12,594 nucleotides of DNA. Source: Promethearchaeota archaeon (GTDB taxonomy: Archaea > Asgardarchaeota > Thorarchaeia > Thorarchaeales > Thorarchaeaceae). The position numbers were made by a program, and so were the translations under genes. Shown one piece after another: positions 1 through 12,594 of this stretch (its first letter is position 1; each line of letters begins with the position of its first letter). The stretch lies in NCBI GenBank assembly GCA_027031765.1, contig JALVPN010000117.1, forward strand, positions 1-12,594, written 5' to 3'. Under the pieces are notes generated by a model. The model made no database searches. It saw only the letters and a list, made by a program, of their open reading frames with translations, and was not told where the DNA came from.

Positions 1-2216
1 CGCTTGTATATGTACCGGGCCCATGAGGACATGCTCGGCATCTCCTCTGGCATGCCCTTGCGGCGCCGGATCTCAAGGATGACCTGCTCCTGTAGTGCAG
101 CAGGCAGGGGCTCGAAACCCCTGAACTCGTAACCGAAGAAACTCCGCCCGGCGCTTGCGCTCCTGAACTCGTCGGCTATGCCGATGGTCTCGGCTGTGGG
201 CAGGGTGCCCTTTATTGTGACCGAGTCCTCCTCGGCCTCCATTGCCACAATCTGTCCACGGTGCGCCGTCAACACCTTGATCACTGCGCCTTGGGTGTCA
301 GGTGGTGTCTTGATGTCGACGTTCAGGACGGGCTCGTAGAGGGCTGGCCCGCCTGTCAGGAACGACATGTTCAGGCCAGAGCTGACCATTGTGGCCACCT
401 CGTTGAACCCGGTATGGGCCGGGTCGGTGTGGACGGTGGCATCGGTCAGTACGACCTTCACTGCCATCACGGGCTCGTGTGCAATTGGTCCTGCATTGAC
501 GAACTCCCTGAACGTCGACTTCACATAGGCTGATATCCTGTCGAACCGCTGTACGCCGGTCATCGCGTCCACGAGGATGCAGTTCTCATATATGTCGAGG
601 ATCTTGCGGGCCTCTTTCGCGTCCCAACCAGCCTCGCGCCTGAGGATTTCCGCGCGCTCACGTGCAGGCTGGTCGATGGTGACCTTCTTCTTCCTGATGA
701 GCTCCACGGTCTTGTCGTCAAGGGGTTCAAGGTACATCTTTATCCTGTTGTGTCCGTTTGGCGACTTTGTGTGGAACTCTTGGCCGTGCTCCGTCATGCG
801 TTCGCGGTAGACGATGATTGGCTCAGAGACCTTGATTGGTACTTGCTCGTTGATGCGTTTCGTGAGTATCTCGATCTGGAGCGGGTCGATACCATCGAGG
901 CGGTACTCGCCAGACTCCTTGTCATGCACGAACCGGGCCGTCGGGTCTGCCATTATCCATTTGCGTACGACCTCGCCGAGCTTGCCGATGTCCTGTGGGT
1001 CCACAGGCTTGATGCTCCTGCTCACGACAGGCTCGCTGACGTACTCGATGGCCTCGAAACCCGGCATGTCTGATGACGGGTCAACAAAGGACTCGCCTGA
1101 CGGACACAGGAACCCGAAGATGGACATCAGGTTACCCGCGGGTATCTTGTCCATCGGGAGGATGTCTGTGATCTCCTGCACGCCGAGGCGTTTCACACGT
1201 GCGTTCTGTTTCATGTTGATAAGCCGGATCTCCTGACCGGACTCAAGCGTCCCTGAGAACACGCGCCCAATCAGAGTGGGCCGTTTGCTCTTCGGGTCAA
1301 CGTAGATCTTCGTGATCATGCCGAGGAGCGGGCCGTCCGGGTCGCACTTGAGGAGTGCACGTCCCTCCGGGCTGTCAAGGTCGCCCCTCCATATCCTCGG
1401 TATCTTGTACTTCTGTGCCTCCCGTGGGTTCGGCAGGTGGTGGACAATCATCTCAAGCAACGCGTCGTCCAGTGGCAGGTTCTCCCGCAGCCACTTCTCG
1501 TCGCCCTCTGCGTACTTCTCAAACACAACGATGGGCTTGATGCCTTTCTTCTCAAGGGTGCGCATTGTGAATGCCCAGCCGGTCTTTGCACTGCCAATGG
1601 CGACAGTGCCATGTTCAAACCCGACCTGCCACTTCTTCTTGAACTCTGGTGGTGCCACCTTGCGGATCAACTCGTTGACCTTGGCCACAATGAGGTCGAT
1701 GCGTTCGTACACCTTCTTGGGTGGCAACTTCAGTTCCTGTATCAGCCGGTCGACCTTGTTGACGAAGAGGATTGGTCTGCAGGCCTCCGCTCCCACTGCG
1801 AGCCGGATGTTGGTCTCGGTCTGGGTCATCACCCCCTCAAGGGCGTCCACCAGGATGACGACCCCGTCACTTGCTCTGAGTGCCCGTGAGACCTCACCTG
1901 TAAAGGAGAGGTGTCCGGGGGTGTCGTTCAGCTGGACCAGGTACTCCTCACCGTCGACCTCGAAGTTGAGCAGCACGACCGATGTGAAGATTGTAATCCC
2001 TCGTTCCTGCTCCTCCTCATCGCTGTCGGTCATCAGGGCCTGTCCGGCCGCCGCGTCGCTCATCAGCCCTGCCCTGCGCATGAGGTAGTCGGTCGTCGTC
2101 GTCTTGCCATGGTCGATATGCGCACTGATGGAAACAATTCTCTTGTGCTCATAGTCATCTGACAGTATGAGTCTCCTGATTGCGTCGGGGTCCTTGATCT
2201 TGACCACTTTTTTCAC
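1..2216 (-). CDS. fusA: Elongation factor 2 family GTPase, divergent paralog (aEF-2p-like); 3' end truncated by window edge
   Basis: Manual minus-strand translation from GTG at 2216 (in-frame TAG just upstream at 2220-2222); no stop seen down to position 1. It reads MKKVVKIKDPDAIRRLILSDDYEHKRIVSISAHIDHGKTT (G1), EQERGITI (G2), DTPGHLSF (G3), FVNKVD (G4), GSAKTGW (G5), domain IV loop HTDPAHTG and the C-terminal FRSASAGRSFF...RRRKGM. About 738 codons lie in the window. The ORF track omits it because the stop is outside. Confidence 0.95.
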   Translation of the reverse strand, partial: MKKVVKIKDPDAIRRLILSDDYEHKRIVSISAHIDHGKTTTTDYLMRRAGLMSDAAAGQALMTDSDEEEQERGITIFTSVVLLNFEVDGEEYLVQLNDTPGHLSFTGEVSRALRASDGVVILVDALEGVMTQTETNIRLAVGAEACRPILFVNKVDRLIQELKLPPKKVYERIDLIVAKVNELIRKVAPPEFKKKWQVGFEHGTVAIGSAKTGWAFTMRTLEKKGIKPIVVFEKYAEGDEKWLRENLPLDDALLEMIVHHLPNPREAQKYKIPRIWRGDLDSPEGRALLKCDPDGPLLGMITKIYVDPKSKRPTLIGRVFSGTLESGQEIRLINMKQNARVKRLGVQEITDILPMDKIPAGNLMSIFGFLCPSGESFVDPSSDMPGFEAIEYVSEPVVSRSIKPVDPQDIGKLGEVVRKWIMADPTARFVHDKESGEYRLDGIDPLQIEILTKRINEQVPIKVSEPIIVYRERMTEHGQEFHTKSPNGHNRIKMYLEPLDDKTVELIRKKKVTIDQPARERAEILRREAGWDAKEARKILDIYENCILVDAMTGVQRFDRISAYVKSTFREFVNAGPIAHEPVMAVKVVLTDATVHTDPAHTGFNEVATMVSSGLNMSFLTGGPALYEPVLNVDIKTPPDTQGAVIKVLTAHRGQIVAMEAEEDSVTIKGTLPTAETIGIADEFRSASAGRSFFGYEFRGFEPLPAALQEQVILEIRRRKGMPEEMPSMSSWARYIYK

Positions 2217-2275
2217 TCTCTAGTTTCCTGTCCCCAGTTGTGGCACTTGACACGAGAGAACTCGGTGGGGGGGTC

Positions 2276-2299
2276 GCCACCAGTCCTGTCGCCGGTGGC
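2276..2299 (-). other. Stem-loop at predicted 5' end of EF-2 paralog mRNA
   Basis: Minus strand GCCACCGG-CGACAGGA-CUGGUGGC forms an 8-bp stem (one G-U) with an 8-nt loop. Confidence 0.55.
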
Positions 2300-2321
2300 T
2301 TTGGCGACCACCATGACGATG

Positions 2322-2336
2322 TTTAAAAGAATTTCG
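2322..2336 (-). promoter_or_regulatory. BRE-TATA promoter of the EF-2 paralog
   Basis: The minus strand reads CGAAAT-TC-TTTTAAAC, a purine-rich BRE followed by an archaeal TATA box. Standard spacing puts the TSS near 2299, about 83 nt upstream of the GTG. Confidence 0.7.
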
Positions 2337-2461
2337 TAATGGGGCCTGGGTACTGCTGGGGTCTGCAGGTGCTCATGACGATTGCACTGGGCCGACCCGG
2401 AGTCGTGGACACTCTCTCAGCGGTACCGTGCCCTCCCCCAGCAGTGCCGTACTACCGTCGG

Positions 2462-3241
2462 CTACTTCTCGGCCACGACGACCATTCGTTGCGAGTCGGC
2501 TGAGTACGGTGTCCTCGGGAGCTTGTTCTGCCCGTAGAGCTCCACCTTGTTGAACCCTGTGTCTGCAAGGAGCTCGCGGATCTCGTGTGCTGTGTACATC
2601 CTGATGTTGTTGTTCATCATCGCGTCCTCGTTCATCACAACAATGCGTGCGTTCTCAACATCGATGAAGGTCGCAGGTCTGCCCCTGAGAATGCCGGACG
2701 CGGCATCCAGGACATGTGCCTCGTTCAGCAGGTAGCCCCCTGCAACCTTGGTCCAGGTCTTGTGGAACCGTGGTAGGTTGTACGGGTTCATCAGGTCGAG
2801 CAGCAGTCGTCCACCAGCTCTCAGTGCATTGTATGCGCCCCGGAGCACAGCCATGTTCCCCTCATGGTCAAAGAAACCGAAGCTGTGGCTCAGGATCACC
2901 GCTGCATGGAACCTCTCATGGTAGTCCATCTCCCGCATGTCCCCGGTGTAGAAGTCCACTTCCACTCCCTCTTCCTGTGCACGCTGCATCCCAGCCCTCA
3001 CCAAGCTCTCTGCAAGGTCGAATGCGGTGGCCTTCAGCCCCGCCTTTGCGAACTCTATGCTGTGCACACCGGCACCGCAGGCAATGTCGAGGACCTCTCG
3101 GCCCGGTTCGAGACCAAGTGTGTCGATACAGAACTCCACGACCATGCGGTCGTACTGTTCAATCCCGGGGATGGAGTTGCGGTGCTTTATCCTGAACAGC
3201 TCGGCCCAGAACTCGTCCCAGCCAAGGGCAACTCTCTGCAT
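2462..3241 (-). CDS. Class I SAM-dependent methyltransferase
   Basis: 259 aa. Motif I VLDIACGAGVHS, acidic end of strand 2 (AFDLA), GDMR, and post-II LRAGGRLLLD. The substrate cannot be inferred. Confidence 0.9.
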   Translation of the reverse strand: MQRVALGWDEFWAELFRIKHRNSIPGIEQYDRMVVEFCIDTLGLEPGREVLDIACGAGVHSIEFAKAGLKATAFDLAESLVRAGMQRAQEEGVEVDFYTGDMREMDYHERFHAAVILSHSFGFFDHEGNMAVLRGAYNALRAGGRLLLDLMNPYNLPRFHKTWTKVAGGYLLNEAHVLDAASGILRGRPATFIDVENARIVVMNEDAMMNNNIRMYTAHEIRELLADTGFNKVELYGQNKLPRTPYSADSQRMVVVAEK

Positions 3242-3389
3242 GGCACTGTCCTCTCGTGCGCAACGATATGAAGCTTGTCATTATGTGTCCCGCCACTCCC
3301 ACCCGGCAGGTGTACGACCTAATCCCCCACCAAGACGTACTCGCATGCTCACTGGGCCACGCAGCCGTACCGGAAACGCAGAACGGGGT

Positions 3390-3487
3390 GGAGACGCTCT
3401 GACACCCTGTTGTTGAGATCTCCGCCGGGAGGTTTGGACTTCAACAGGAAACTCAGAGTGATGAGCATGACCAGTGCGAGCGTCTCC
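3390..3487 (-). ncRNA. Candidate ~98-nt structured non-coding RNA (unassigned family)
   Basis: A perfect 10-bp terminal inverted repeat (3390-3399/3478-3487) encloses further stems (3406-3412/3442-3448; 3418-3423/3428-3433). A minus-strand TTTATA box at 3517-3512 begins 30 nt upstream of G3487. Confidence 0.45.
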
Positions 3488-3509
3488 GGACTAATCATGT
3501 TCGGCCACG

Positions 3510-3525
3510 CCTATAAATGTATAGG
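3510..3525. promoter_or_regulatory. TATA box embedded in palindrome CCTATA-aatg-TATAGG
   Basis: 6-bp inverted repeat with a 4-nt spacer. It contains TATAAA (+) / TTTATA (-) in an AT-rich patch of the MTase-aspS divergent intergenic region. Confidence 0.55.
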
Positions 3526-3710
3526 TCATATGGTAAACAGTGAAGTCTCATGAAAAATCGTTAGTCCCGGTGGTGGTCGTGGCCCGGTCACTGTCATGGC
3601 ACGGTATCCATGCTCCTCGATGCGCCACCGTTCTCGTCCTCTCCACGGTGTCTGGGCCACAAGTCTCATAACCATGATGCCAATCGGCTCGGCAAGTGAG
3701 GCAGCGCAAG

Positions 3711-5069
3711 ATGGACTTCTATGAGAGGGCTGGTGTTGAGCCCATCGATGACGCACCGAGGACACACTACACCTCAGAGATTGTCCCAGCACTCACCGGC
3801 GCCGAGGTCGAGTTGATGGGCTGGGTGCACATACTCCGTGACAAGGGCCGCATCAAGTTCCTGGTCCTCAGGGACGAGCGGGGCACAGTGCAGGTCACCA
3901 TCCCGAAGAAGCGCGTCCCGGAGGAAGTGTTCGAGGTCTCCGGCACACTGCGTCCCGAGACCGTGGTCGCAGTCCATGGCACGGTCGTTGAGGCGCCCCA
4001 GGTCGAGCGTGGTGTCGAGGTGATACCGTCACGGCTACGGGTCCTGAACCGGTCGGAACCACTGCCCATCGATGTGGTGGAGGGCAAGGCCGGCATCGAC
4101 CTTGACACACGTCTCAACCACCGTATCCTCGACCTCAGGAAGCCGCGGGTGAACGCAGTCTTCAGGGTACAGCACTGTCTCGTCCGGTTCGCCCGCGAGT
4201 ACCTTGAGGAGAATGGTTTCGTCGAGGTCCACACACCCAAGATTGTTGCCGAGGCCACGGAGGGTGGCGCGAACCTCTTTGAGATAAAGTACTTTGAGCG
4301 CAAGGCGTTCCTGGCACAGAGCCCGCAGTTCTACAAGCAGCTCATGCTGCTCGCTGGCTTTGGACGTGTCTTTGAGGTGGCGCCGGTCTTCAGGGCCGAG
4401 AAACACAACACACGCCGTCATATCAATGAGTATACCTCCTTCGACCTGGAGATGGCATGGATACGTGGTGTGGAGGACGTGATGGCCATCGAGGAGGAGA
4501 TGCTGTGCCATGCGTTCTCCAAGACCCGTGAACATGCTGCTGCTGAGCTGGAGCTCCTCGGCGTGGAGCTTGTGACCCCCAGAATACCCTTCCCACGGGT
4601 CAAGTACGCAGGGGTCATTGACATGCTCGCCTCCGAGGGCAAGGAGCTTGAGCTGACCGACGACCTCGACCCTGAGGCTGAACGCATGCTGGCAGAACTG
4701 TTCCCGGAGCGCTTTGGCACCGATATGGTCTTCATAACCCACTACCCACTTGAGCTGCGTCCTGCCTACACGATGCCCAGCATGACCGACGAGGGCATGA
4801 CCGAGAGCTTCGACCTCACTTACAAGGGCATGGAGATCACCACTGGCGGACAGAGGATTCACCTGTACGACCTGCTCGTTGAACGGTTCCGTGCGAAGGG
4901 CTTCAACCCCGATGACTTTGCGTTCTACCTCGACCCGTTCAGGTACGGTGCTCCCCCACACGGTGGTCTGGGCCTTGGTGTCGAGAGGCTGACAATGCAG
5001 GTGCTTGGCATAGAGAACATCCGCGAGGCCACACTCCTGCCACGTGACCGCGACCGGCTGACGCCGTAG
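3711..5069 (+). CDS. aspS: Aspartyl-tRNA synthetase, archaeal type
   Basis: OB-fold N-terminus (RTHY...GWVHILRDKGRIKF), motif 1 (FVEVHTPKI), AQSPQFYKQ, motif 2 FRAEKHNTRRHINE, GGQRIH, motif 3 PPHGGLGLGVER and the C-terminal PRDRDRLTP. ATG 3711 is preferred over GTG 3696 because GTGAGG upstream looks like an RBS. Confidence 0.96.
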   Translation: MDFYERAGVEPIDDAPRTHYTSEIVPALTGAEVELMGWVHILRDKGRIKFLVLRDERGTVQVTIPKKRVPEEVFEVSGTLRPETVVAVHGTVVEAPQVERGVEVIPSRLRVLNRSEPLPIDVVEGKAGIDLDTRLNHRILDLRKPRVNAVFRVQHCLVRFAREYLEENGFVEVHTPKIVAEATEGGANLFEIKYFERKAFLAQSPQFYKQLMLLAGFGRVFEVAPVFRAEKHNTRRHINEYTSFDLEMAWIRGVEDVMAIEEEMLCHAFSKTREHAAAELELLGVELVTPRIPFPRVKYAGVIDMLASEGKELELTDDLDPEAERMLAELFPERFGTDMVFITHYPLELRPAYTMPSMTDEGMTESFDLTYKGMEITTGGQRIHLYDLLVERFRAKGFNPDDFAFYLDPFRYGAPPHGGLGLGVERLTMQVLGIENIREATLLPRDRDRLTP

Positions 5070-5094
5070 TCCGACACCTGTCCACGCCGCACCA

Positions 5095-5113
5095 GTAATA
5101 CTCTGTCTTAAAG
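5095..5113 (+). promoter_or_regulatory. Putative promoter of Vps22/36 gene (GTAATAC motif + TTAAAG TATA)
   Basis: AT-rich patch gtaatactctgtcttaaag in the short gap after aspS. Confidence 0.45.
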
Positions 5114-5176
5114 CACGTTGCTGGGTCACACTCCATGTCAAGAGTTGGTACTACTGGTACGAAGGGAGCCCGACCG

Positions 5177-5914
5177 ATGCGCGAGAGAGCCGAGTCTGAG
5201 CTGTACGCATGTATCGCGACACTCGACCAGCTGAAGAAGATGTACGACATGGGTGCAGTAGATATCACATCCTTCCGTCAGGAGTCGGCCGGCCTGATAT
5301 CTGAGGTCCGGGGCCAGATTGAGGAGATGCGCCGCCTCGGCCTGGACCCTGATGGCTTCCTAATTGCGCAGCGCATCCCTGAACGGTTCCCTGATGCTGC
5401 CTCACTCCTCGAACTCGGCAGCCCGGCCACCCAGCCGCTCGCAGGGCTCACACGGGAACAGTACCTCGACTACATCGGCCTCGCCGTACTAGACGTGGTG
5501 ACCGCGAATTCGTCCAAGGGCATCATGGGCCTCGCAGAACTCATAGTCGAGGTGGTACGCAGAATCCCGCAGTCATCCCCAGTGAGCTACAGCGACGTGA
5601 TTGAGGCCGTGGACATGGTGGCTGCACACGGCCTGATCCCTGGTATCCGGACTCTGAAGGGTGGTGTCAAGGTTGTCGAGCTCCGCCCCCTCGAACTGCG
5701 TGGTGACCAAGCTGAAGTGATAAACCTCGCAGCGTCAAAGGGGTACGTGACCATCGAAGAGGTGATGATGGAGTTGCGCTGGAGCCGCGACCATGCGGTC
5801 CAGGTCCTGGGGAGTCTGGTGGACGATGGGATGGCGGTGCTCGACAGCTCGTACTCGGCAGGGAAGCGCTACTGGTTCCCCGGCCTCCGGACACGTGACA
5901 GCAACGCCTCCTGA
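5177..5914 (+). CDS. ESCRT-II Vps22/Vps36 (EAP30) winged-helix protein with N-terminal Vps28-N-like hairpin
   Basis: The C-terminal ~150 aa match the Vps22/Snf8 tandem WH pattern (YLDYIGLAVLDV...GIMGLAEL...VSYSDVIEAV...PLELRGDQAEVINLAASKGYVTIEEVMMELRWSRDHAVQVLGSLVDDGMAVLD...YWFPGL). The N-terminal ~80 aa resemble Vps28-N. Start is ATG 5177 (GAAGGGAG RBS) or ATG 5135. Confidence 0.88.
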   Translation: MRERAESELYACIATLDQLKKMYDMGAVDITSFRQESAGLISEVRGQIEEMRRLGLDPDGFLIAQRIPERFPDAASLLELGSPATQPLAGLTREQYLDYIGLAVLDVVTANSSKGIMGLAELIVEVVRRIPQSSPVSYSDVIEAVDMVAAHGLIPGIRTLKGGVKVVELRPLELRGDQAEVINLAASKGYVTIEEVMMELRWSRDHAVQVLGSLVDDGMAVLDSSYSAGKRYWFPGLRTRDSNAS

Positions 5915-6098
5915 AGAGAAGAGGGCGGGACTTGGCGCCCGTAGAAACAGTGGTGGTACCCTCTCCCTGTGGTGGGGGTAAGACACGGTATGCCCTACAT
6001 CAACTAACACGGTGATGCGGACTCGTTACCTATGTCCTGTGCGTACCGTTGCCTACTCTGCCCCCTCTCGTGACGTCTCCCCTCCCCCGGGCCTCTCC

Positions 6099-6812
6099 TC
6101 AGACCCTGAGCAGCACCGTCCCCCTGTCCTCGTCAATCCACTGTGCCACCCCGCGTTCCACAAGACGGCCGAGTGCTGTCCGCAGCTCGTCCTCTGGGAG
6201 CGTCGAGAAGGCCTCGGTCGTTTCCCGGATCACAAGCGACCTGACATCAAGTCGTCTGTGACCCGTCCTCAGTGCCCAGTCGTATATGACATCTGACCAC
6301 TCGTCCGGGTCCCTCCAGAAGACCCGGAGGACACGTCCCTCCTCCCCCCTCCACTCTGCAAGCCCACGTTCTACGAGCCTGTCACCAATCGTCTGGAACG
6401 CGTCCATGCGCTGTTGTATCTGAGTGAAGGGCGAGTATGTCAGGAACGTCATGAGGGAGACCGTGTGCAGTCTGGCATGTGCAGTCCATTCGAGGAGGTA
6501 CTCCGCCCACTCGTCAGCCCACAACCGGCGGTCCTGTTCGTCCTGCGGCACAATGTACATCCAGCCTGCCTGTTCACGTGCCCCCCACTTTGGCTGGGGT
6601 GCAGTCGGTGGTGCCAGCGTCCCCTCGGCCGGGGTCAGTCCCACTGCCGACACCATGCCCCCGCCCTGACGCACCTGTCCGTCCACCACCCCTGATATTT
6701 GGCCCTCAGTGCTGGTCGCAGCTGTGGTGCTGTCCACGGCCGGCGGGGTGTCGTGAGAGACCTGTGGTGGTGCGCCCCTACCCTTCCTGCGGACGCGTTC
6801 CGCCATGCCCAC
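6099..6812 (-). CDS. vps25: ESCRT-II Vps25 homolog with ~75-aa low-complexity N-terminal extension
   Basis: Contains WADEWAEYLLEW, LAEWRG, VFWRDPDEWSDVIYDWALRTG (Vps25 signature I/V-W-R-x-P-E-E-W...IYxW) and FSTLPEDELRTAL. It starts 3 nt after the vps4 stop (GTG 6812 or ATG 6806), so the two form an operon. Confidence 0.88.
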   Translation of the reverse strand: MGMAERVRRKGRGAPPQVSHDTPPAVDSTTAATSTEGQISGVVDGQVRQGGGMVSAVGLTPAEGTLAPPTAPQPKWGAREQAGWMYIVPQDEQDRRLWADEWAEYLLEWTAHARLHTVSLMTFLTYSPFTQIQQRMDAFQTIGDRLVERGLAEWRGEEGRVLRVFWRDPDEWSDVIYDWALRTGHRRLDVRSLVIRETTEAFSTLPEDELRTALGRLVERGVAQWIDEDRGTVLLRV

Positions 6813-6815
6813 GGC

Positions 6816-8045
6816 CTATGACCCCTCCGCCCACTCTATGTAGCGCTGCATAACCCGCGGGTCGGTGGACGGGGACACCATGGTCAGTGCCCGCAGGAAG
6901 TCTCCCATTGTGACAGGCCTAAGTCCCGGTGCACCCCCTTCACTGGACCCCTTGTCACGGAGCACTTCTCTCACGGCCTCCATTGCAGCCTCCCGACACA
7001 CGGTGCTTATGTCCCGGCCACTATACCCCTCGGTCATGCCTGCAAGGTACTCGTAGTCCACATCTGGGGCGACATCGACGCCGGTCATGTGCACCCTGAA
7101 TATCTCGGCGCGTGCCCCTTTATCTGGCAGCGGCACGTGGATCCGCTTTTCAAAACGTGAGCACAGGGCGAAGTCAAGTTCCCAGGGCAGGTTGGTGGCG
7201 GCGATGACCGTGACCCTGTCGTCCTCACCCTCACGGAGTCCCTGCATCTCTGTGAGCAGCTGTGTTTTCAGGCGCCGCTCCCCGCCCACATCGTCTGCCG
7301 AACGCGCCGTGCCAAGGGCGTCGAGCTCGTCAATGAATATGACCGAGGGCTGCAACTCCCTGGCCCTCCGGAACAGCTCGTGGACAAGCCTCTCAGACTC
7401 GCCCAGCCACTTGCTCACGATATTGGCTGCTGACACGTTGAAGAACGTGGCACTCACCTCCGCGGCCACCGCGCGTGCAACAAGGGTCTTTCCACAGCCC
7501 GCGGGACCGTACAGTAGGACTCCCCTCCAGGGCCTCCGTGCCCTTGCTGCAAACAGCTCGGGCCGGGTCATCGGCGCAATGACGGCCTCCTCGATTGTCT
7601 GCTTCACATCGTCCAGGCCGACCACGTCACTCATCCGCGTGTCTGGTCGCTCGACGACAATCGTTGCGTCAACCATCTGTCGGACACGCTGCACGTCCTG
7701 GTCGCTCTCCGTCGGATAGGCCTCTGTCTGCTCGTCGCTGTCCGCAGGGGTCACCGTGTGGGGGCCGTGGGCGTCGTGTGTTGGCGGGTGCCGGGTGTGG
7801 GCCGTGGTGGGCCCGCCGGGACCGCACAGCTCTCTCACACGGTCAACACATTCCTGTGCACGGAGCATGTAGTGTCTTCTGAGCGACGGCAGTGTGGCCG
7901 AGCGTGACAGGTGCAAGAGGACCCTGCTCGCCTCGAGATATCGTCGTGCTGCCTCACGGCTCTGTCCGCTCCTGTCGAGGCCTACTGCTGTTTCCAGCAG
8001 ACGCCTGAGCCCCATGTCAACCCTGTCCATATGTGCTCCGGACAT
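6816..8045 (-). CDS. vps4: Vps4-like MIT-AAA+ ATPase
   Basis: N-terminal MIT three-helix pattern (AVGLDRSGQSREAARRYLEASRVL...YMLRAQE), Walker A GPAGCGKT, pore loop SKWLGES, Walker B IFIDELD, sensor 1 AATNLPW, GYSGRDI, and the C-terminal helix PSTDPRVMQRYIEW. There is no beta-domain insert. It neighbours ESCRT-II and ESCRT-III genes. Alternative start ATG 8030. Confidence 0.93.
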   Translation of the reverse strand: MSGAHMDRVDMGLRRLLETAVGLDRSGQSREAARRYLEASRVLLHLSRSATLPSLRRHYMLRAQECVDRVRELCGPGGPTTAHTRHPPTHDAHGPHTVTPADSDEQTEAYPTESDQDVQRVRQMVDATIVVERPDTRMSDVVGLDDVKQTIEEAVIAPMTRPELFAARARRPWRGVLLYGPAGCGKTLVARAVAAEVSATFFNVSAANIVSKWLGESERLVHELFRRARELQPSVIFIDELDALGTARSADDVGGERRLKTQLLTEMQGLREGEDDRVTVIAATNLPWELDFALCSRFEKRIHVPLPDKGARAEIFRVHMTGVDVAPDVDYEYLAGMTEGYSGRDISTVCREAAMEAVREVLRDKGSSEGGAPGLRPVTMGDFLRALTMVSPSTDPRVMQRYIEWAEGS

Positions 8046-8295
8046 GCTCCGTCGGCCCCATCTCTGCCACTTGAATATGAATATGGGACTATGCTCTTGG
8101 TATTACGTCTGTCCGCCCGTATGCCTGACATCGGTGGTCCTTCCTGCGCCCGTCGGCACACCGGGCCCGCCCACAGGTCGCGGCTGCCCGTCAGTTGGTA
8201 TACCCACCGCCTGTGTTCCTCTACAGGTATTACTACGTTTTTAGACTGATTACCGGTGCACAGGAATGGAGCTCGCTCCATATGTGGTGGACCAC
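8046..8295. promoter_or_regulatory. Divergent promoter region between vps4 and ESCRT-III
   Basis: AT-rich patches: tandem GAATAT x2 (8073-8084), TTTTTAGA (8238-8245), GGTATTAC at 8099-8106 and 8226-8233, and palindrome GGTATACC at 8197-8204. Confidence 0.55.
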
Positions 8296-8904
8296 ATGGG
8301 CGCCGCTAAGAAAGCATGGTCATGGGCGTGGAACAATGTGGATGTTAGCAGACTGCGTGTCGACCTGAAGGTGCTAGTACGGCAGCTCGAACGTGAACGT
8401 GTAAGGCTGGAACGTGAGGAGCGGGCGGCCCGTGAGAGAGCTGCCAGGGCCCATGAGAGTGGGAAATCCGATGTGTTCCGCTTCTACGCGACGGAAGCCG
8501 TCCGGTTCAGGCGCCTCGCCATTTCTGTGGACCGCTCGCGCCTGCAAATGCTCAAGGTCCTCGCTCTGGTGTCCCGTACACAGACGACGGCTAGGACATC
8601 AGTCGCAATGCAGGAGGTCGCCAGGACACTTGAGGTCCTTGAGAAGGAGGTCGACAGCAAGAGGACACTGCAGAACGCTGACGAGATTGCCCGCAGGCTT
8701 GAGGGGCTTGAGATTACAAGCGAGCTCTCGGCTTCTGCCCTCGACTCGGGCGTCGCGGAGGTCTCACCAGAGGAAGTTGCAGCCATGATGCGTGAGATTG
8801 CCAGCGAGCAGACGCATGACACACCAGCGAGGGGGGGCTTGCTGACAGAGGCCGAGGCACTTGAGGCCGACATACGCTCGCTGGAGCGTCAACTCGGTCT
8901 TTGA
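8296..8904 (+). CDS. ESCRT-III subunit, Vps2/24/46 (CHMP1/2/3-like) class
   Basis: Charged helical hairpin LKVLVRQLERERVRLEREERAARERAARAHESGKSDVFRFYATEAVRFRR...TQTTARTSVAMQEVARTL matches the CHMP1/Did2 pattern. It has an acidic C-terminal half, helix 5 SPEEVAAMMREIASE, and a Leu-rich MIM1-like tail. ATG 8296 follows GTGGTGG; alternative start ATG 8266. Confidence 0.9.
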   Translation: MGAAKKAWSWAWNNVDVSRLRVDLKVLVRQLERERVRLEREERAARERAARAHESGKSDVFRFYATEAVRFRRLAISVDRSRLQMLKVLALVSRTQTTARTSVAMQEVARTLEVLEKEVDSKRTLQNADEIARRLEGLEITSELSASALDSGVAEVSPEEVAAMMREIASEQTHDTPARGGLLTEAEALEADIRSLERQLGL

Positions 8905-9067
8905 GACTGGTGCACGGCCGTCCTCAGCTATGCGTGACACGGCAGACGGGGGCAATTGCGGTACAGTAGTCAATGACGGCTGCTGGTCAGGTCAGTAACG
9001 GCTGCTACTGTTCATCCGCTCCGGACCGCGCTTGGCGGACAGGTCGCAGCAGGGCCATTTCCCGGCC

Positions 9068-10789
9068 CTACCAGACCGGATAGCCCTGGCCTGCGGTCAG
9101 CCTCTCAATCTCTATGCTGGTCATATACGCGTCGCGCACGAGTTCTCTATACCTGCGTATGAAGTCCTCTGGGGCCAACCGCCCATCGCGCATCATCCTT
9201 ACTGTGCGTCTTATCTCTTCGTCAATGACTGCCGCCTGCTGTTTCAGGCGTTGGAGCCCCGCCACTTGTTGCGGTTGATATGAGTCACTGTACGTACTGC
9301 TACTCGTCGGGGGCCGTCCGAGTCCCGGATGGCCCGTTGTGGGCGTGCCTGCGGATGGCGGCCGCTGGACGTTGGGTGCAGTCTGATGGGGCTGGCCTGT
9401 CTGGACTGGGGATGGTGCTGGTATGTCCGTTGTGCTGTGTGGTATGGCCCAGTAGCTGCTGGTGCCATGGTCATGTTGGGGTGTTACAGCATGGCTGTAC
9501 CACTGGGGCGCAGCCCGTGCGGTCGGGGCCGGGTACCACCCCGTCGCTGCTGGCCCCCTCATGGACTGGGATGGCCGCACTGTAGCACTTGTGTCATGTC
9601 CTTGCGTCCTCGACGAGAGTACCATGTGGATGAGCGACTCGATCTTGAGGCGCACATCACTTACACTGGTGTCTGTCTGTTGCAGTCGCCTGACACGCTG
9701 CATGTCCGTCTGCATGTGCCTGTTGAATGTCCGGGCAACCTCCACGTACTGTGGCAGTACACTCTTTGTCTGCGGGTTGCACGAGAACCGCAGGTCTCCC
9801 TGGCGCATCTTGAAGACCAGTCTGTCCTGTCGCTTCGTGTCCGGCTCGATGTTCGAGAGATACGAGAGTGGAAAGTCGAAGACCACGTCTGTCCTTTTCC
9901 GCATGCGTCCTGTCTCTGCAATGAACACCATGCGCACGTCCGTGATGAAGAGGGTCCCTCTGGCCTTGTCGTTCTTCAGGAAGTCGCTCCCGGCCAGTGC
10001 GATGTCCGGAAATGCACACACGGGGTGCTCATTGACCCTGAACTCGGTGTAGTCCCTGAAGGGCCTGAACTGTTTCCTGTAGAACGCCACTCCGTCGAGC
10101 TGCGCCTTGAGGTCTGCGACAGTGAGCATGAGGCCTTGGAGGGCCTCGTCAACGCGCTCCCTGTAGTCGTTGCTCAGCTGTACCAGTCTATGCACCACGC
10201 CCCTAACGAACGAGAACTGCTCCGGTGCCCATCTAGTATAGTCAATCAGCCCGCGTGTTTCGGCCACCATCTGGCGCGCCACAATCTCGGCCTGGTTCGC
10301 AATCCTGCGCTTGACTGCTGGCAGCTCCGCATGGAGTCCCTCGACCTTGGCCTCGAGCCAGTTGTAGTGTAGGAAGTCCGCCATCCTGAGTGAAACGAGC
10401 AGCTGTTTTGCCTCCTCAAGGCGGTTGCGGAACTCCCTGAGTCGCATGTGACCATACCTTATGCCCATCACGGCGCGTTTCATCTCGGCAGCCAAGTTGC
10501 GCCGCGTCACATCAATGAGCACTGTCCTTACAGAGTGGCACTTGGGGCACCTGTCTGTAGTGCGCCGTCCGCGGGCCAGGTCTTTGGAGCCGCAATTGGT
10601 ACACTGGGTGGTGCTCTCTCCCGGCAGGGGGGTGCCCAGGTCTGTGTGACACTCCCTGCACACCCAGTACTCCCTTGTGACCGCTTCAAGGCATTCCGGA
10701 CATAGGACGGCCCCGCAGTCTTCACACAGGTGTGTGGCCCTTCGCGTACCGCAGACCTCACATGTGACTGCAGATGCATCTCCTCTCAA
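9068..10789 (-). CDS. Multidomain protein: Cys-rich Zn fingers + coiled coil + GRAM/PH-like domain + Pro/Ser/Thr-rich linker + C-terminal steadiness-box-like hairpin (putative ESCRT-I-like adaptor)
   Basis: Six CxxC pairs (10538-10762), a heptad-rich helical region (~10070-10507), ARGTLFITDVRMVFIA...FDFPLSYLSNIE (GRAM/PH-like, ~9722-10042), a low-complexity linker (~9266-9607), and MMRDGRLAPEDFIRRYRELVRDAY (~9095-9265). TTG 10789 is preferred as start because GGAGG lies 7 nt upstream; the ORF is open to 10969 (ATG 10924). Confidence 0.8.
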   Translation of the reverse strand: MRGDASAVTCEVCGTRRATHLCEDCGAVLCPECLEAVTREYWVCRECHTDLGTPLPGESTTQCTNCGSKDLARGRRTTDRCPKCHSVRTVLIDVTRRNLAAEMKRAVMGIRYGHMRLREFRNRLEEAKQLLVSLRMADFLHYNWLEAKVEGLHAELPAVKRRIANQAEIVARQMVAETRGLIDYTRWAPEQFSFVRGVVHRLVQLSNDYRERVDEALQGLMLTVADLKAQLDGVAFYRKQFRPFRDYTEFRVNEHPVCAFPDIALAGSDFLKNDKARGTLFITDVRMVFIAETGRMRKRTDVVFDFPLSYLSNIEPDTKRQDRLVFKMRQGDLRFSCNPQTKSVLPQYVEVARTFNRHMQTDMQRVRRLQQTDTSVSDVRLKIESLIHMVLSSRTQGHDTSATVRPSQSMRGPAATGWYPAPTARAAPQWYSHAVTPQHDHGTSSYWAIPHSTTDIPAPSPVQTGQPHQTAPNVQRPPSAGTPTTGHPGLGRPPTSSSTYSDSYQPQQVAGLQRLKQQAAVIDEEIRRTVRMMRDGRLAPEDFIRRYRELVRDAYMTSIEIERLTAGQGYPVW

Positions 10790-11088
10790 CTGGGGGCCTC
10801 CGGATGTCCTGCCTCCCTGTCTGTGACGGCAGTCAAGAATAACCCGTGTATTATTGCTGGAATACCGACCGGGCAGAGCCCCCTGTCTAGGCGTGCCTGC
10901 ACCGGGCGGCTGGGCCCCGGACATGGTTCGGCGGGGACGTCTACTGAGGGCCCAGGCCTTGGCGCCCACTTTTCACAACCACGGTCCTGCCGCCCGCTGT
11001 TGGTACTGTCCCCGGTATTATCTTGGAGGTGTGTTTGGCCACATAGATACATCTATGAACCCGTTGCTGCACGGCCAGTGTGATTGAT
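10790..11088. promoter_or_regulatory. Divergent promoter region between the Zn-finger/PH protein and tldD
   Basis: AT-rich patches at ~10835-10856 and ~11015-11060, each beginning with or containing GTATTAT. Confidence 0.4.
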
Positions 11089-12474
11089 ATGGAGGACTTG
11101 GCGGACGCCGCAATTCAGGCGGCACTGGATGCGGGAGCCACCTTCGCCGATGTCAGAATTGAAGACACGATGACCACAGTCCTTGAGATCAGCGACGGTG
11201 TGACACGGCGCTCCACAATATCCCATCTCAAGGGTGCGGGCATCCGCGCGCTTGTAGACGGTGCGTGGGGGTTCATCCAGAACACGGACCTGAGCCCCGA
11301 GGGGATGCGCGAGGCCGGGAGGTCTGTAGCAAAGATGGCCCTGGCCACCAGCTCGCGGGTGGAGGCGCGGTTTGACATCGATGCGCCCGTCTTCACTGGC
11401 AAGGTGACGATGCGTGTCAGGCGGCCCTTCGTGGATGTGCCCATTGAGGAGAAGGTCGAGTTTACAAAGATGATTGACGACCAGGCGCGCCAGTTCGACG
11501 AGCGCATTGTCAATACCCGTACGGTATATGGCGAGATGTGGACACGGCTGTTCGTCGCAAACTCGCTCGGTACACGTGTCTGGATGGAGAACTCACTCCC
11601 GAGGATCATGTCAATTGTCACCGCAAAGGACGGTGGCACCCGTCAGCGTGCCTTCCGTTCTGTGGGCACCCGCGGTGGGTTCGAGACCATGAGGACCGAG
11701 GAGGCCCAGCACATAGGTGAGGCCTCGGCACGCCTTGCAGTCGACCTCCTGTCGTCGGTGGCTGCAAAGGGTGGCATATACGACGTTGTCATGGACCCGG
11801 TACTCAACGGCGTGATGGTCCACGAGGCCTTCGGTCATGCCACCGAGGCTGACAACTGGCCCGCCCATGCCACTGTGCTCGAGGACAAGGTGGGCGAACA
11901 GGTGGGCCCCGAACACCTCAACATAAGCGACGACCCCACTCTGCCGGGCGAACGCGGCTCCTTCGAGTATGACTGGGAGGGCACAAAGACCCGGAAGCGC
12001 CGGCTCGTGACAGCAGGTGTCCTGACGGAACTCCTCCACAGCCTTGAGACCGCCTCGAGGCTCGGCATGGAGCCCAACGGTGCTGCCCGGGCGCAGAGCT
12101 TCATGTACCCGCCCATCCCACGGATGAGTAACACGTTCATGGAACCGGGTGACTGGAAGGTGGAGGAGATAGTCGAGGACACAAAGCACGGCATCATGCT
12201 GTGCAGTTTCAACTATGGCTACACTGAGCCGGCCAAAGGGCAGTTCATGTTCCAGGCACGTTATGGCTACCTCATTGAGGACGGCGAGGTCGGCCAGATG
12301 GTGCGCGACGTGTCACTGGCAGGTCAGATACTGGATGTCCTGTCAAAGATTGACGCTGTTGCGGACGACTTCCAGATGGAGGCCGGCACATGTGGGAAGA
12401 ATGGCCAGGGCGTCCCGGACATGAGTGGTGGCCCCCACGCACGGATCAGGGCAGTCCCTGTAGGAGGTATGTAG
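11089..12474 (+). CDS. tldD: TldD family metalloprotease
   Basis: GATFADVRIE N-terminus, zinc motif HEAFGHATEAD (HExxxH), GSFEYDWEG, PRMSNTFM, and the C-terminal CGKNGQ...SGGPH. Start is ATG 11089 (or GTG 11080). Confidence 0.94.
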   Translation: MEDLADAAIQAALDAGATFADVRIEDTMTTVLEISDGVTRRSTISHLKGAGIRALVDGAWGFIQNTDLSPEGMREAGRSVAKMALATSSRVEARFDIDAPVFTGKVTMRVRRPFVDVPIEEKVEFTKMIDDQARQFDERIVNTRTVYGEMWTRLFVANSLGTRVWMENSLPRIMSIVTAKDGGTRQRAFRSVGTRGGFETMRTEEAQHIGEASARLAVDLLSSVAAKGGIYDVVMDPVLNGVMVHEAFGHATEADNWPAHATVLEDKVGEQVGPEHLNISDDPTLPGERGSFEYDWEGTKTRKRRLVTAGVLTELLHSLETASRLGMEPNGAARAQSFMYPPIPRMSNTFMEPGDWKVEEIVEDTKHGIMLCSFNYGYTEPAKGQFMFQARYGYLIEDGEVGQMVRDVSLAGQILDVLSKIDAVADDFQMEAGTCGKNGQGVPDMSGGPHARIRAVPVGGM

Positions 12475-12477
12475 GCA

Positions 12478-12594
12478 ATGAGCAGTCAACTACTTGAGAC
12501 CGGCGAGCAGGCGGTCGAGGCCGCGCTGCGCCTCGGTGCTGACCAGGCCGAGGCATACGTGTCGCGGACGCGTTCGTTCGCAATAGATGTGGAG
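12478..12594 (+). CDS. pmbA: PmbA/TldE family protein, 5' fragment (runs off right edge)
   Basis: ATG 3 nt after the tldD stop, with AGGAGGT RBS at 12462-12468. It reads MSSQLLETGEQAVEAALRLGADQAEAYVSRTRSFAIDVE, which carries the GADQAEAY N-terminal PmbA/TldD pattern. tldD-tldE pairing is typical. Confidence 0.82.
   Translation, partial: MSSQLLETGEQAVEAALRLGADQAEAYVSRTRSFAIDVE

Follow-up and report, generated by a model that had tools for sequence, protein, structure and literature searches.

How is ESCRT-I linked to ESCRT-II in an archaeon whose Vps22 gene opens with a sequence resembling Vps28? The question is raised by a contig of a Promethearchaeota archaeon of the order Thorarchaeales (GenBank assembly GCA_027031765.1, contig JALVPN010000117.1), of which we analyzed positions 1 to 12,594 on the forward strand; this whole stretch of 12,594 nucleotides is referred to here as the window. 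In eukaryotes, the N-terminal hairpin of Vps28 packs on the hairpins of Vps23 and Vps37 in the ESCRT-I headpiece, and its C-terminal bundle contacts ESCRT-II. A first-pass annotation of the window, made from the sequence alone, proposed that the gene at 5177-5914 joins a Vps28-N-like segment to winged helices of Vps22/36 type, that this segment takes the place of the usual Vps22 N-terminal helices, and that the gene is a covalent fusion of the Vps28-ESCRT-II link.

The Vps28N-Vps22 fusion is already known. Makarova et al. [quoted passage not shown] According to this published description, KXH75178.1 shares both architecture and annotation with the window gene, a steadiness box followed by the Vps22 winged helices, and differs from it in nothing material. 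The window gene likewise has the features of cog.002769, namely a steadiness box ahead of two winged helices, encoded among Asgard ESCRT genes. Hatano et al. (2022) employed two Thorarchaeota (Thor) proteins, ThorAB25_09030 'Vps22' and ThorAB25_08990 'SB', in yeast two-hybrid assays; the former is a visible orthologue of the fusion and the latter is the zinc-ribbon protein described below. The protein set of that study is apparently without a Thor Vps28.

Here, we confirm the fusion and add detail on its distribution, origin and likely partner, which the published domain assignment leaves unstated. Among the genomes sampled, the Vps28-type N-domain is found only in this order, and it is absent from the non-Thor Asgard Vps22 proteins examined. 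It replaces the ordinary N-terminal helices, and no canonical Vps28 is detected in the order. We also present an origin suggested by gene order in other lineages and a predicted interface with a partner protein.

Results

The fusion gene and its ESCRT locus

The window is contig C117 of a genome of 2.95 Mb that is 95% complete, and the proteins most closely related to those it encodes carry the label Candidatus Thorarchaeota. The fusion gene (5177-5914, +; 245 amino acids plus stop) follows a gene for an Asp/Asn-tRNA synthetase (3696-5069, +), and its product is on record as P0003. Its start is the ATG at 5177, which is M15 of a longer open reading frame (5135-5914); this Met is unchanged across 66 orthologues, the majority of which begin with it. 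The peptide that the first-pass annotation quoted is the exact translation of 5177-5425 on the plus strand. Beyond the fusion gene lie genes encoding the ESCRT-II subunit Vps25 (6099-6812, -; Pfam ESCRT-II, E 3e-12), a Vps4 AAA ATPase with an MIT domain (6816-8045, -; Pfam AAA, MIT and Vps4_C), an ESCRT-III subunit of the Snf7 family (8266-8904, +; Pfam Snf7, E 2.9e-12), a 573-residue zinc-ribbon protein (9068-10789, -) and TldD/PmbA (11080-12474, +). The genomic association of the Vps22 gene with those for Vps25, Vps4 and ESCRT-III, which are adjacent in the window, is also seen in the loci of a sister lineage. The Snf7-family gene is the only ESCRT-III gene of the locus. Vps25 carries a low-complexity N-terminal extension of ~90 residues, rich in Ala, Pro, Thr and Gly, ahead of its ESCRT-II winged helices, and its start codon is uncertain. 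An open reading frame at 6012-6296 (+), which overlaps the Vps25 gene on the opposite strand and has no family match, was taken as spurious.

The last ~150 residues of the 245-residue protein are an ordinary Vps22/EAP30 tandem winged helix. Pfam EAP30 (PF04157) matches the protein at E 9.8e-14, with 52 bits over a cut-off of 26.8, human SNF8/VPS22 is matched at E 2.5e-15 (phmmer, PDB sequences), and Foldseek ranks 3cuq_A (E 1.3e-10), 2zme_A and 1u5t_A first for the full-length AF2 model. This Vps22/EAP30 core, consisting of one helix and two winged-helix domains, is encoded by 5453-5911 (+). A short flexible linker (5420-5452, +), marked by variable alignment columns and, in the full-length model, by low confidence (pLDDT below 50) over residues 96-103 of the long open reading frame, joins it to the N-domain.

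The N-domain is a Vps28 N-terminal domain

The first 83 residues of Thor Vps22, encoded in the window by 5177-5425 (+), are a Vps28 N-terminal (steadiness-box) domain. An alignment of 66 orthologous Thor Vps22 N-termini (A2) was compared with an alignment of 19 canonical Asgard Vps28 sequences drawn from a phylum-wide PF03997 search (A3), which itself retrieves the N- and C-domains of eukaryotic Vps28 in the PDB. The two align with a probability of 99.1 and E 8.6e-19 over 78 columns at 31% identity (hhalign), and have the motif E-L-Y-A-x-I-A-T-L-D in common. A search of 1.84 billion representative proteins with the A2 profile (hmmsearch) gave 49 matches at E <=1e-3; those outside the Thor Vps22 family reach E 2e-12, and Pfam VPS28 was present in nine of nine that were scanned. 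Ten matches other than Thor fragments were scanned in all. They comprise seven full-length Pfam VPS28 proteins, one UEV-Vps23-Vps28 fusion with a full VPS28 domain, one UEV protein that fits only the N-terminal part of the VPS28 profile, and one other EAP30 fusion, which is more distant. Among PDB sequences, yeast Vps28 constructs came out on top with the same profile (E 0.035-0.07). No profile similarity was found between the Thor Vps22 N-domain and the Vps23-type hairpin that this locus also encodes.

Matches of single sequences to Pfam VPS28 (PF03997) fall below the gathering cut-off of 24.5 bits, scoring 12.9-14.9 bits for the window protein and 12.9-19.9 bits over single sequences, and always span profile positions 2 to ~60-80. 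A score under the cut-off is expected for the window protein, since it covers only about 80 of the profile's 188 positions; the four-helix bundle of the Vps28 C-domain is absent from this protein, in which the chain runs on into the Vps22 winged helices. An orthologue from the sister family (L096) passes the cut-off with 26.9 bits. Across the orthologous N-termini, Pfam VPS28 is matched by 53 of 66, and the next family by 20.

The fold leads to the same assignment. The residues encoded by 5177-5425 were modelled alone, since a Foldseek search with the whole protein was dominated by Vps22. The AF2 model (pLDDT 93.7) shows a hairpin of two helices and, after it, three short ones. In this check, which the first-pass annotation had proposed, the leading matches are the Vps28 N-domains of ESCRT-I headpiece structures: the ten best Foldseek matches are all such chains (6VME, 2F6M and 2CAZ; TM 0.66-0.79), on which the model superposes with an rmsd of 2.1-2.3 A over 78-79 residues. 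VIA-align against representative structures gave Z 11.0 for human Vps28 (6vme_E, residues 34-112) and 8.8 for the yeast protein (2caz_E); the next-best row after the Vps28 chains has Z 7.6, and the others are lower. The hairpins of Vps23 and CdvA align with the N-domain over only 52-56 residues. The likeness is thus to the Vps28 type specifically.

The Vps28-type domain replaces the N-terminal helices of Vps22

The N-termini of other Asgard Vps22 proteins consist of a basic helix and a hairpin, as in the eukaryotic protein. When Thor Vps22 was compared with 22 other Asgard Vps22 proteins, the alignment ran only from residue 107 of the long open reading frame to the end (hhalign, E 7.6e-38), and the Thor N-domain (A2) showed no similarity to the N-termini of the others (hhalign probability 1.2). 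In the window protein, the EAP30 profile match begins at profile position 64-65, and the N-terminal helical region (positions 1 to ~60) is not matched. Over 61 Asgard genomes sampled, the match starts mostly at position 1-2 in the Vps22 of other families and at ~58-85 in the Thor family.

All three proposals of the first-pass annotation are borne out by these comparisons. A Vps28-N-like segment is fused to the Vps22 winged helices, and it stands in place of the usual N-terminal helices; an ordinary EAP30 N-helical domain, the finding that would have spoken against the proposal, was not what the comparison with other Asgard Vps22 returned. Its reading of the gene as a covalent fusion of the Vps28-ESCRT-II link is supported as well, with the qualification that the part retained is the headpiece-binding half of Vps28 and that the bundle contacting ESCRT-II is missing.

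Distribution of the fusion and absence of canonical Vps28

Searches with the A2 profile found the fusion once per genome in 74 of the 81 genomes of the order. Of the 24 high-quality genomes, 23 have it, and every one of the 17 genera is represented. Two truncated frames aside, the open reading frames encode ~246-323 amino acids. The sister family has the same fusion architecture (L096 and L035). The most likely point of origin of the fusion is the ancestor of the order.

Canonical Vps28 was not detected in any of the genomes of the order that carry the fusion. By PF03997 over its cut-off, canonical Vps28 was found in 0 of 27 genomes of the family, as against 101 of 151 genomes phylum-wide. We also screened all six-frame open reading frames of the window's genome, unfiltered, with Asgard-specific Vps28-N and Vps28-C profiles. 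The fusion gene is the only credible match to the Vps28-N profile (E 5e-14), and nothing credible matched the Vps28-C profile, for which the best E was 0.12. Weak genome-wide matches to these two profiles, comprising an EF-1alpha-like open reading frame, a cation antiporter tail and an 84-residue open reading frame, were rejected. Several genomes of the family also contain frames of 410-520 amino acids with weak PF03997 matches (E ~1e-3, profile positions 10-185), which were taken as coiled-coil noise because a 414-residue coiled-coil example is unrelated to Asgard Vps28 (hhalign probability 0.2).

Gene order in other Asgard lineages

A Vps28-N match within Vps22 was found in 0 of 29 non-Thor Vps22 loci. 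Directly upstream of vps22 and on the same strand, 22 of these 29 loci have a complete vps28, and in six further loci vps28 lies <=2 kb upstream; a gene for a Vps23-like hairpin often precedes vps28. Since vps28 and vps22 adjoin in most of the other Asgard lineages sampled, we suggest that the fusion originated by an internal deletion between the two adjacent, co-directional genes, an origin inferred from gene order only.

The open reading frames just upstream of vps28 (in L036, L037, L038, L040, L041, L049, L060 and L062) have a C-terminal hairpin with a weak match to positions 2-53 of the Vps28-N profile; these hairpins are probably Vps23-like steadiness boxes, and the resulting gene order in non-Thor loci is vps23-like, vps28, vps22. 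Some non-Thor Asgard genomes have, between a full vps28 and vps22, a stand-alone Vps28-C gene of 95-104 codons (L037:1201-1485, L038:1197-1481 and L040:1171-1482; E 3e-8 to 1.5e-11 with the Asgard Vps28-C profile), as Makarova et al. (mBio 2024) also remark. Two genes lie divergently upstream of the fusion gene in the sister lineage. One encodes a protein of 239-266 residues with a faint bacterial-PH match (L096:1782-2501, - and L035:7161-7961, -), and the other a protein of ~453 residues and no known family.

A candidate partner for the Vps28-type domain

The 573-residue neighbour (9068-10789, -) ends in a conserved hairpin, ahead of which it has zinc ribbons, a coiled coil, a PH-like domain and a Pro-rich linker; its Pfam matches are to DZR and B-box, with a weak one to Mod_r. 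It fits the Znr_CC_PH_SB family that Makarova et al. (mBio 2024) described. We found it in 41 of 41 Thor-family genomes and, where positions were compared, a few kb from the Vps22 gene. Its C-terminus (9071-9286, -) is a steadiness-box hairpin of the Vps23 type. A word-based homologue search with the 69-residue tail found only the window protein itself. Among 26 orthologous tails gathered by genome search, 13 match Pfam Vps23_core (best E 2.3e-4), and profile searches of the PDB gave weak matches to yeast Vps23. Other than this tail, no Vps23-type hairpin was found in the locus.

The two hairpin domains were co-folded as a 1:1 complex, each supplied as an alignment. The Vps28-N domain and the Znr_CC_PH_SB tail gave an ipSAE of 0.77, compared with 0.00 for the best of three controls, although a complex of the same kind (Vps23-C:Vps28-N, e.g. 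2F6M) is already solved and the pass may reflect memory of it. For comparison, 58 of 80 solved complexes and 2 of 110 mismatched pairs attain this mark. Among the three runs, contacts agree to at least 97%, the pLDDT of the partner is at least 86, and the predicted contacts sit on the nearly invariant helix-1 motif of the N-domain. The co-fold supports a model in which the Vps28-N domain would dock onto the Vps23-type hairpin of Znr_CC_PH_SB.

Discussion

The fusion is real, conserved and mechanistically sensible, and it joins parts of two membrane-sorting complexes in one chain. With canonical Vps28 of Asgard archaea and eukaryotes (PF03997; 2F6M, 2CAZ, 2P22 and 6VME) it shares the sequence and fold of the N-domain; unlike canonical Vps28, it lacks the ESCRT-II-contacting four-helix bundle at the C-terminus and forms one covalent chain with Vps22. 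With Vps22/SNF8/EAP30 (3CUQ_A, 1U5T_A and other Asgard proteins) it shares one helix, two winged helices and the neighbouring Vps25, but the N-helical region (EAP30 positions 1 to ~60-85) is absent and has been replaced. The Heimdallarchaeota UEV-Vps23-Vps28 protein HeimAB125_14070, described by Hatano et al. (2022) and represented among our profile matches (P0155-type), is likewise an Asgard fusion of ESCRT-I modules in one chain. That fusion lies within ESCRT-I and includes a full Vps28, whereas the Thor fusion crosses from ESCRT-I to ESCRT-II and includes the N-domain only.

We consider it likely that Thor Vps22, with a Vps28-N domain in place of its N-terminal helices, docks on the Znr_CC_PH_SB hairpin as part of a merged ESCRT-I/II module that arose by deletion. 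Of this account, the domain's identity and fold, the replacement of the helices, the distribution and the gene order are computational results, whereas partner, function and origin are inferences. The two winged helices of the fusion would bind Vps25, encoded next door, which in turn would recruit ESCRT-III and Vps4. As happens in the ESCRT-I headpiece, the Vps28-type hairpin would pair with one of the Vps23 type, supplied here by the tail of Znr_CC_PH_SB, and the zinc ribbons and PH-like domain of this protein would presumably recognize cargo or membrane. The non-covalent contact that the Vps28 C-domain makes with ESCRT-II in eukaryotes would be replaced by the short peptide linker, and the upstream ESCRT-I and ESCRT-II parts would form one merged module. 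A deletion between vps28 and vps22 would account for the disappearance of both the Vps28 C-domain and the N-terminal helices of Vps22; loss of the C-bundle that contacts ESCRT-II is what a covalent replacement of the contact predicts. The broader proposition, in which the entire upstream ESCRT machinery of Thorarchaeales is a single ubiquitin-independent module (Znr_CC_PH_SB, the hairpin contact, Vps28N-Vps22 and Vps25) derived from one vps28-vps22 deletion with loss of canonical Vps28, is more tentative, and we hold its chances to be somewhat short of even.

Other explanations have to be weighed against the docking of the Vps28-type domain on Znr_CC_PH_SB. The hairpin might serve mainly in the self-association of Vps22, taking over from the lost helices, through which eukaryotic Vps22 pairs with Vps36. 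Hatano et al. (2022) observed self-interaction of Thor Vps22 in the yeast two-hybrid assay, so that the hairpin could serve dimerization as well as, or instead of, docking; the same work includes a dimer of Odin Vps23, an indication that steadiness-box proteins can dimerize, and the ordinary Vps22 N-helices, as noted, are gone. Against this stand the co-fold, in which the Vps23-type tail and none of the three controls scored and did so on the most conserved face of the N-domain, and the solved headpieces, in which Vps28-N pairs with the Vps23 hairpin. We regard self-association as the main role as unlikely, but the two functions could coexist, as they are not exclusive.

The two remaining explanations deny the fusion itself. 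That the segment is an ordinary EAP30 N-helical domain or some generic hairpin, resembling Vps28 by chance, might be argued from the sub-threshold Pfam scores of single sequences and from the many middling structural matches (Z ~7) that helical hairpins yield. This is refuted by the hhalign comparisons, in which the same alignment that matches Asgard Vps28 at E 8.6e-19 reaches a probability of only 1.2 with other Asgard Vps22; moreover, VPS28 is the family most often matched across the orthologues, and a match of 78-79 residues exceeds a bare hairpin, the Vps23 chains aligning over 52-56. A chance likeness is accordingly very improbable. An artefact of assembly or gene calling that joined separate vps28 and vps22 genes could be imagined from their adjacency in other Asgard lineages, but we give it still less credence. 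It is refuted by 74 independent genomes, and by more than 100 protein clusters of several sources, in which the N-domain recurs without gaps in one uninterrupted frame and no internal stops are seen.

As evidence of the Rosetta-stone type, the fusion indicates that the link between Vps28 and ESCRT-II predates eukaryotes, and it shows the two halves of Vps28 to be separable modules. Thorarchaeota are seemingly without ubiquitin, according to Hatano et al. (2022), and, from the literature, without UEV-Vps23, so that their ESCRT-I/II appears reduced to a fused adaptor and one zinc-ribbon/PH protein. Such a reduced set would be a compact system for reconstituting the hand-over from upstream ESCRTs to ESCRT-III. 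If the merged module is as proposed, it would represent a natural minimal ESCRT-I/II, in which the Vps28 C-domain bridge became dispensable once the link was covalent.

A possible remnant of the Vps28 C-domain

A divergent Vps28 C-domain may survive on another Thor protein. Outside the window, the genome encodes a 370-residue coiled-coil protein (G000:C31:22961-24070, -) that is present in 30 of 31 genomes of the family (also in L097 and L098). Between its highly conserved C-terminus of ~90 residues and the final helices of the Vps28 C-domain there is a weak likeness (hhalign probability 24.5, E 8e-4, 36 columns), and a profile search of the PDB with this tail returned nothing relevant. The protein may be the Thorarchaeota 'BAR-SB' protein for which Table S3 of Makarova et al. 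(mBio 2024) gives an HHpred value of 84 to the Vps28 C-domain 2J9U_A. The likeness of the tail, together with the 'BAR-SB' entry, makes a complete loss of the Vps28 C-domain uncertain. In the window's genome (G000) and in three other genomes of the family, the gene for the 370-residue protein lies near that for the 414-residue coiled-coil protein mentioned above; in G000 and one of these three genomes, a D-aminoacyl-tRNA deacylase gene lies between the two.
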